Assembly: GCF_056746865.1 (NCBI RefSeq)
Contig: NZ_CM163382.1
Reading direction: 5' to 3' (one strand)
Length of the DNA stretch: 64,000 nucleotides
Shown here: one piece after another, positions 27,001 to 30,000 of the stretch
Layout: each line of letters starts with the position of its first letter
Position numbering within the stretch: position 1 is the stretch's first letter
Program-made: the position numbers

Positions 27001-30000
27001 GCGGGTTTCCGCTTCATCAATAGAGAGAATATCGGCAACATGCTGGTTACGCGCTCTGGCTTCATTCAGGCGTTGAGTGAGGTGTTCGGCCTTTTCCTGT
27101 TCTTGCTGTAGTGCGCGTTGCAGCGCCAGTTCGCGCTCACGGCTTTCATCCTGAGCCCTGATTGCATCTTCCAGACGTTTTTCATCTGCACGACCTGAAG
27201 ATTGTGTTAATGGAGGGAGTGTAAATTTGGGGCAGTCATCAACATTACCGTGGGCGTAGCGAACATACAGCCAAATTCCCAACAAATACGCTTCTTTGAG
27301 CAGCCAGTAAGTATCTTTAGCTTTGATACGTCCGCCGTGCGCGGCACGGTTGCCATGGATACGCAGCGCATCCATTTTCATGATGATGGCTTCCGGCATC
27401 ATGCTGGTAAAGACATCAGCATTCATTAAATCGTAAAGATTAGCCTTAATACCTTCCGGCAACCGCTCCTGACGATACAACCAGCGCACCATCAATTCGG
27501 TGTAGTTGCGCAGCTTGACCAGACAACTTTCCGGATCGGAGTGAACATAGCGTTCCGCCATACACGCGAGTTCAGCCAGTTCCGGCCACTGGCTGCGCAA
27601 CATTTCAAAATTGAGAGACTGCTCCATCAATCATCGCCTTATGTCGTGGATACAACAGCATTTCTGGAAAGAATATCACACTAATTTGGCCGACGAAGTG
27701 AGCCGGATGGCATATGGTGGTGATGTGTTTAACGACATAACTGCTCTAACGGTCAGATCCTTGGTTTTCGCCCATCAATGGGCATCTTCAGCCATGGCTA
27801 CTCACAGGATACCTTGCTAACCAATGAAGGTATGGCTGATCATCTATGGGATATGTTTTTTGAGCCAATAAAACGATGGAGCTTTTCTCCAAGTTCATCA
27901 TTAATGAATTTTGTTTCAATGCATTAATCAACTCTTCGCATTTTCGCTATCTTTTATCCACTTCCCTTTTGAAAAGGTGGGTATCTACGTTACCAATACT
28001 GGTTTAATGGCTACATACGGCGGTCCGTTTACGCTTACGGTAAAGATAAGCGATAAGCTCCCAGCGCTAGGACCGGGAGCTCTGCATAGCTACCACCATT
28101 TAGGATAGTCGTTAAAAGCACGTAATATTGATTGCCTGGCAGCAGGCATCAAGCTTTTCACTTCCTTTTGAAAGGGAGATACCACCATTGATATCTTCCT
28201 TCATACATGACCAATTCAGCACACCAGCGACTGGATATGGCGGGAAATGGTGGCCCGGGGGTTACAGGCAGTGAAACCATCGTCAGGGATGCTGTTGCCA
28301 AATGGCGTAAAGGCTGGAACCCACCAGTTACTACTGCCGCCAGACTTCCTTCAGTGTCCCGGGTAAGCCGCTGGTTGATGCCCTGGATAATAATCAGGGG
28401 TGAAGAAAATTATGCTTCCCGATTTATTAGTCTGATGTGTGAAAAAGAACCGGCGCTGAAAATAGCGCAGCAACTAGTACTTGAGTTCTACCGTATTCTG
28501 AAAACCCCAAATAAATCAAATCTAAGCAGTTGGTTCACTCGAGTCCACGAAAACGGTTCAGCAGAACTTCGGCGCGTGGCTGCGGGGATGGAAGCTGATG
28601 CTGCGGCTATATGTGAGGCAACCAGCAGCCGCTGGAGTAACGGTGTTGTCGAAGGTCATGTAAATCGCCTGAAGATGCTGAAACATCTGATGTATGGTCG
28701 AGCCGGATTTGAACTACTTAGGCAGAGGGTAATGAGTCCACTGGCATGAAAATCTCCACCTAGGTTGCGGAAGAGCCACTTTTGCACCGTTCGTGATAAT
28801 ACCGTAAATAAGCCTCTGAAAGTTATAGGATATGACACAACTAAAGAAGTCTGTGTGAACCGCGTAATACCAAGTGAATTGCTTGTTATATCTGTTTAAT
28901 TAAACCTAATCGACCAGCCTTACTGGAGAGGCTGGTTAGTGATTAACTGGGAGTATTGCAATTAGATGTGTTCTACAGGCCCACGAAGGTAGATGGCTGC
29001 CAGAGTTCATCTTCGCGTGTAAAAGACTCTTAGTTGATTAATTCTAATTTATCGATCTATTACGCGATCATAATATTCGATGATTTGCAGTGCAACAGCA
29101 GCAATTTGTACTGCTTCCTCCCTACTGGTACCGGCTGCTTTACCACCAAAACGATCATGGAGGACAGCCTGATGAAATTCTCCCACCTCTTCTCCGAGAA
29201 TCGCTCCCCAGATAAAAGGATCTTGATTACGGTCTGCCCCCCATTTGGCATCCTGCCGTTGCATTTCCGCTAGCACGTCAGACAGGGCTTTAGTGTCTTG
29301 ATGTTTACCTTTCATGTTTCCCTTACGAATCCGTGATTTTAAGTCCATCATTAACATTTAATATGTGCAGAGTCCATTAATTCGCTACATCTCATTTTGT
29401 GAATGAGCGTTGAGTTTGCTATAAACGTAGCAACCAAGAAAAATAAAAGTGGATAATTTTGTTCATTACCTTTCAAAGCAAGAAGTTAAGGACTATTTGC
29501 GAGAGTATGCATGAGGCAAATGAGATCTTTGGTGACAAAGTGGCATCAAGACTACGCTCGCGACTTTCCGATCTTTCCGTGACAGACAACATATTACTGT
29601 TGCCCGTAGGTTCGCCGGAGGTCTGCTTTGAGGATGGGGAAGAGTGTATTACAATTACCATTCTCGGTGATGTAAAAATGGGATTTGTCTGTGGGAATAC
29701 AGTTCAGCCCAAAAATCAAGATAATACAATTAACTGGTCCCGAGTTAGCCGGATACGGTTAGTGTTCATAGGTGACGTGAAATGATAGTTACGCAGGACT
29801 TCCAGCCTGACTGGGTATCTCCACCCGGTGATACAATTATAGATCTAATGGATGAACATGGGCTTTCTGGTGAAGAACTGAGTAAGAGGATTGGATTGTC
29901 TCTTATCCGGGGTCAGCAACTTCTTGAAGGAAAAATCCGACTCAATGAGTCTCTGGCTTGTAAGCTTGAGGAGTTATTCAACGTATCGACAGACTTCTGG

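Follow-up and report, generated by a model that had tools for sequence, protein, structure and literature searches.

A direct repeat in the window (the whole 64,000-nucleotide stretch analysed here, from contig NZ_CM163382.1 of assembly GCF_056746865.1) very probably represents the left ends of two independently acquired and now dead insertion sequences (ISs) of the IS66 family, both lying on the minus strand and derived from different members of the family. As such, the feature is of an already known kind, being ordinary mobile-element debris in an E. coli genomic island.

Two IS66-family left ends

An earlier note had described an imperfect repeat of ~60 bp at 27981-28040 and 47886-47946, with both copies in the same orientation and ~20 kb apart. 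A repeat search and self-BLAST confirmed that the repeat is real and placed its edges a few bases away, at 27975-28039 (copy A) and 47878-47942 (copy B): 65 nt align without gaps on the same strand with 56/65 identical positions (86%), in direct orientation, the two copies lying 19,903 bp apart. Exact matches run to at most 19 nt, with 13 nt the next longest. On either side of the 65 nt, ungapped identity drops at once to background level (2-4/10). In the self dot-plot proposed in the note and in self-BLAST of the window, the neighbourhoods of the two copies resembled each other nowhere beyond the 65 nt, yet an IS identity is present nonetheless, as the note had supposed when it took the copies for ends or fragments of one IS family.

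On the minus strand both copies open with 5'-GTAAGCGTAAAC...CCGCCGTATGTAGCC, such that an IS66-type terminal inverted repeat (~20-30 bp, starting 5'-GTAAGCG) is present in each. Searching with a 30-nt terminal repeat pattern returned two occurrences in the window and none in 100 shuffles. Both are nearly intact relative to the left inverted repeat (IRL) of ISEc23: the IRL of copy B (47912-47941) matches exactly, and that of copy A (28009-28038, minus strand, GTAAGCGTAAACGGACCGCCGTATGTAGCC) carries one mismatch. To place the element tips we turned to intact relatives, using the names ISEc23 and IS682 as they stand in RefSeq/PGAP product names. An IS682 of 2,533 bp (locus L005) is flanked by the 8-bp target duplication GAGAAAGA, and an ISEc23 of 2,532 bp (locus L011) by GTAAATAA, which fixes the element ends as GTAAGCG...CGCTTAC. 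Thus, the window tips are 28038 and 47941, where the shared ...CGCTTAC ends, and the G common to both copies at 28039/47942 belongs to the flank. In line with these findings, IS66 is known to make 8-bp duplications (PMC6778807), and another member of the family has inverted repeats starting with GTAAGCG and a TnpA/TnpB/DDE-transposase layout (PMC12888890).

While 8-bp target duplications were seen around the intact relatives, both window copies are one-ended. Intact relatives carry tnpA-tnpB-tnpC (the last encoding a DDE transposase) inside the left end; of these genes the window keeps only 56 tnpA codons, at copy B. Searching the window with TnpA, TnpB and TnpC by tblastn recovered TnpA residues 1-56 (at 100% identity) and no tnpB or tnpC, and a search with the ISEc23 right-end pattern found no IS66 right end. 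Neither copy can therefore transpose. The nearly intact terminal repeats, together with the many E. coli genomes that hold intact IS66-family elements as a possible source of protein, could suggest that a composite transposon or mobilisable unit is bounded by the two ends and would be moved by an IS66 transposase in trans. However, a transposon needs mutually inverted ends, and these are two left ends pointing the same way, with the right end absent throughout; moreover, the flanking 8-mers differ (GGTAAAGA at 28039-28046, GATGGAAA at 47942-47949). The pair thus lacks both the inverted ends and the flanking duplication of a composite transposon, and we regard this reading as extremely unlikely.

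An 86-nt segment around copy A gave 10,538 matches in 3,323 of 5,426 complete E. coli genomes, in keeping with the end of an IS that occurs in many copies; in E. coli accessory DNA, few repeats are commoner than the ends of IS66-family elements. A search for the core ACCGCCGTATGTANCCAT in ~100,000 species genomes returned 24 loci, a total close to the estimated number of chance matches for a pattern of this length. About five of these loci (L010, L011, L020, L025 and L029) have a full IS66 left end, L010 and L011 lying on contigs labelled as non-enterobacterial metagenome bins, and the remaining ones lack the rest of the IS end.

A different origin of the 65 nt, as a chance match or as an element unrelated to ISs (a small RNA gene or a REP-like repeat, for example), could draw on their short length and on the unusually good folding of the copy B plus strand. 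Yet at least 56 matches in 65 positions are expected by chance with a probability of ~2e-15 (binomial tail scaled by the number of position pairs that 64 kb allow), no Rfam families were found in 27000-49000, copy A folds no better than shuffled sequences on either strand (z=0.13 and 0.81), and in many genomes the sequence runs on into annotated IS66 genes. We consider the probability of such an origin negligible. Rather, the two copies are alike because IS66-family ends are conserved, and they are not duplicates of one another. In an intact element, we infer, the segment would serve both as the terminal inverted repeat (5'-GTAAGCG...) recognised by the transposase and as the leader of tnpA-tnpB-tnpC, and it would also contain one arm of a conserved hairpin abutting the tnpA start codon.

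The two copies in their surroundings

Copy A is a solo left-end remnant of ~70 nt (27969-28038, minus strand), comprising the IRL and the first ~40 nt of the leader, with no tnpA. It is IS682-like, being identical at 72/78 positions (92%) to IS682 of the O157-type strain 2014C-3057 and at 65/69 (94%) to an element of E. coli Nissle 1917, both of whose left ends continue into tnpA-tnpB-tnpC in their own genomes. The IS682 right end also matches 28015-28038, in inverted orientation, at 21/24 positions. Similarity to IS682 begins at 27969 and ends at the tip, and sensitive BLAST found no IS682 homology of copy A past 27969. This inner boundary is fuzzy, falling within 27957-27969; on visual inspection, the distal arm of the hairpin (TATCCAC) may reach as far as ~27957.

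To the left of copy A lies the start of the type I restriction gene hsdR (24214-27630, minus strand), itself preceded by a remnant matching TIR-domain genes of other strains. To its right is a 198-bp outer flank (28039-28236), which is shared with strain YSP8-1 (257/268 identical over IRL and flank); the YSP8-1 ORF spanning this flank matched no Pfam family. In YSP8-1, where the locus sits beside PTS genes, the same outer flank adjoins an IRL that still has a tnpA stub, i.e., a longer IS remnant. The copy A locus is kept in 243-259 genomes, and synteny breaks exactly at the copy A tip (28038/28039), with F8111-type genomes having the same inner side and another outer flank. F8111-type genomes (strain F8111-1SC3) also carry a 147-nt insertion near window position 27875. 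A short direct similarity, CACTTCC(C)TTTTGAAA(A)GG, was seen between 27958-27985 and 28155-28182, ~190 nt apart; the first instance lies at copy A's inner edge and the second within its outer flank.

The earlier note had also placed degenerate transposase-like sequence beside each copy, and such sequence is indeed found at both. Right of copy A is a fragment of an ISL3-family element (28207-28796, plus strand), made up of a transposase C-terminal part (28207-28749) and a terminal repeat. The former matches the NCBIfam ISL3 profile (E=4.8e-28, positions 259-368 of 370) and Pfam DDE_Tnp_ISL3. The 28-nt ISL3-type terminal repeat (28769-28796) recurs in inverted orientation 26 kb away (54805-54832, 27/28), where it directly adjoins an IS2-like end at 54833. 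A candidate ISL3 left end near 27930 (AACTCTTCGCATTTTCGC) was dropped, its match to the ISL3 repeat being too weak. Another pair of IS ends was seen as a 54-nt direct repeat with 81% identity at 9218-9271 and 54834-54887, whose sequence (TGGATTTGCCCCTATATTTCCAGACA...) resembles a terminal repeat like that of IS2 or of a near relative within the IS3 family.

Copy B (47857-47941, minus strand) is the left end of an ISEc23, made up of the IRL and a 5' leader that reaches the tnpA start codon. Searching the 5,426 complete genomes by megablast recovered this sequence as the left end of a complete ISEc23 (tnpA-tnpB-tnpC, 2,532 bp) in strain CFSAN061770, in which RefSeq annotates tnpA, tnpB and an 'IS66-like element ISEc23 family transposase'; to this element copy B is identical at 85/85 and 140/140 positions, and the whole of 47717-47941 is identical at 225/225. 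The leader is followed by a truncated IS66-family tnpA, a 58-codon ORF (47680-47856, minus strand) whose codons 1-56 are those of ISEc23 TnpA, with IS homology stopping at 47683. Among NCBIfam models, this stub matches NF038385 (E=1.4e-21) and NF047595 (E=6.4e-16); being truncated, it scores under the full-length cut-off of each. It also matches Pfam HTH_Tnp_1 (46 bits, cut-off 24.1), consistent with the first ORF being an IS66-type TnpA, a helix-turn-helix accessory protein; the homologous gene is named 'IS66-like element accessory protein TnpA' in RefSeq. Just inside the truncation point is a 21-codon ORF (MKKAIAELSDSETILAYRVGW; 47608-47673, minus strand) with a strong AGGGAG ribosome-binding site, and beside it a terminator-like hairpin on the plus strand (47569-47593).

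Right of copy B, RefSeq annotation of an identical sequence marks a C-terminal fragment of an IS3-like transposase of the ISKpn37 family (47943-48136, plus strand; NCBIfam IS3 transposase, profile positions 328-365 of 369), followed by a gene for a SPATE (S6 serine-protease autotransporter; 48254-52129, minus strand). From this arrangement we infer that ISEc23 inserted into an IS3-like element beside the SPATE gene and was subsequently stripped of all sequence past tnpA codon ~56.

The joint and the leader palindrome of copy B

The inner part of the copy B stub is a mosaic. The window and strain W2-5 agree at 63/63 positions of 47620-47682 and also at three informative sites farther right (47685, 47687 and 47701), and 121 W2-5-type genomes match the window up to 47701. 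From 47716 onwards the window instead equals ISEc23 with its IS3-fragment/SPATE flank: at 47717-47960 it is identical to ISEc23 at 244/244 positions, vs 156/244 for W2-5. The switch point thus falls within 14 identical bases inside the tnpA stub (47702-47715). Past 47701, W2-5-type genomes continue into a different, IS682-like tnpA stub and a left end with a 4-nt deletion, and their right-hand neighbours are a transketolase fragment and IS1. Since the truncation point and left flank are common to the window, W2-5 and GPEC1031, the exchange would postdate the truncation.

Not one of the 5,426 complete E. coli genomes has the window's exact copy B junction. To its right, 16 kb agree fully (100%) with AR_0085-type genomes, in which a longer ISEc23 occupies that place. 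In our reading the mosaic arose by a real exchange, in which two diverged IS66 copies took part, with an assembly join as the alternative; the exchange is possibly one end of a larger replacement. So read, it shows how resistance and virulence modules can become neighbours through exchange between diverged IS copies.

Copy B also holds an imperfect 16-bp palindrome between the IRL and the tnpA ATG (47857-47893), whose tip-proximal arm (47878-47893) makes up the first 16 nt of the 65-nt repeat. When folded as plus-strand RNA, 47857-47941 reached -33.8 kcal/mol (z=-5.1, equalled by 0/200 shuffles), and the sense strand was unremarkable. IS682-type elements have another sequence here and pair in the same columns (alignment columns 51-93). 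Across 13 distinct left ends, which fall into only two or three clades, 77.9% of cells pair, vs at most 43% in controls with the partner shifted by 1-3 columns. Changes on both sides were seen in five pairs, vs 0-2 in these slid controls, and compensatory changes separate the ISEc23 and IS682 types. This covariation is suggestive of a conserved leader hairpin in the IS682/ISEc23 group. Wobble pairs showed no consistent strand preference across family members. The distal arm covers a GGA stretch immediately upstream of the tnpA ATG. A consensus promoter scan around copy B found nothing in the IS leader; a promoter read by eye (TTGGTA-18-TATAGA) was set aside as speculative, and it is not conserved in variants with the loop CACAG.

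Combining the joint and the palindrome, we tentatively propose, at somewhat less than even confidence, that a 14-nt patch (47702-47715) within ~260 bp of ~65-70% similar IS66 tnpA fused an hsd-linked defence/multidrug-resistance island to a SPATE virulence island, and that the left-end hairpin of the IS682/ISEc23 group possibly gates tnpA translation. If true, the short-homology joint and the hairpin would be modest additions to IS66 biology, and no new kind of element.

The intervening 20 kb and comparison with known elements

Annotation transferred from W2-5 places the following between the copies, in agreement with the gene content listed in the earlier note: MazG-like, XRE-family, thymidylate-synthase-like and dGTPase-family genes, a frameshifted IS3-family element, papA/papB/papI remnants and an ISCR2-associated floR - tet(A) - strAB - sul2 block. 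Across 24214-35500, type I restriction-modification genes are followed by the TIR-domain remnant and by the MazG-like, XRE-family, thymidylate-synthase-like and dGTPase-family genes, and the region looks like a defence island with the pap remnant and the ISCR2 floR-tet(A)-strAB-sul2 block embedded in it. The two stubs mark boundaries between modules, namely type I restriction, putative anti-phage genes, the pap remnant and floR-tet(A)-strAB-sul2. Their practical value lies in annotation, and they have little significance in themselves.

The same note had proposed that the copies could recombine and thereby excise or invert the intervening 20 kb. As the copies are direct, homologous exchange could only delete this segment, and inversion is impossible. 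Exchange in E. coli through RecA is usually held to need a minimum of ~23-27 bp to be efficient; the 19-nt longest run falls short of this, making the copies a very poor recombination substrate. A deletion between active copies could nonetheless be argued from their direct orientation 19.9 kb apart, and from the crossover that the copy B stub has itself undergone with a second IS66 element. Against this, the copies share only 65 nt at 86% identity, and when the 5,426 complete E. coli genomes were searched with a 780-nt synthetic junction joining the left flank of A to the right flank of B, i.e., the predicted deletion product, no genome covered it. By contrast, 121 genomes preserve the whole 20 kb, from 27001 to ~47716, colinear at 99.8%. 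We therefore judge it very unlikely that the copies are active recombination substrates, and instability of the resistance block is not to be expected from a 65-nt repeat. The broader suggestion that these IS scars are rearrangement points stands in part: each copy is singly a synteny breakpoint, but no exchange between the two was found in the complete genomes searched.

Full-length IS66 copies, by comparison, do mediate large deletions by homologous recombination (PMC6778807). The case described there, on the Agrobacterium At plasmid, resembles ours in that direct IS66-family sequences flank a large segment; it differs in that the copies on the At plasmid are full-length and near-identical, whereas here they share 65 nt at 86% and no deletion product is seen.

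Compared with their own closest relatives, the two remnants depart from the intact elements in different ways. Copy A resembles IS682 and the Nissle 1917 element throughout its terminal ~70 nt (92-94% identity), with the GTAAGCG tip and the hairpin arm nearest to it included, but it lacks tnpA and any further IS sequence, its loop region is 4 nt longer, and it continues differently leftwards from ~27957-27969. Copy B shares with the ISEc23 of CFSAN061770, AR_0085 and others the outer flank (IS3-like fragment and SPATE gene), yet only the first ~259 bp of 2,532 bp are left, and at three positions within the innermost 33 bp it departs from the reference and agrees with the W2-5-type IS682-like stub.

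Lastly, the palindrome of copy B invites comparison with IS10 and IS50, in which left-end hairpins hide the ribosome-binding site of the transposase from read-through transcripts. IS66-family elements are not known to use such a hairpin. By analogy with IS10 and IS50, the leader hairpin of the IS682/ISEc23 group might likewise hide a ribosome-binding site: here too a palindrome sits at the left end, with its promoter-distal arm lying over the GGA stretch and abutting the ATG of the first gene.
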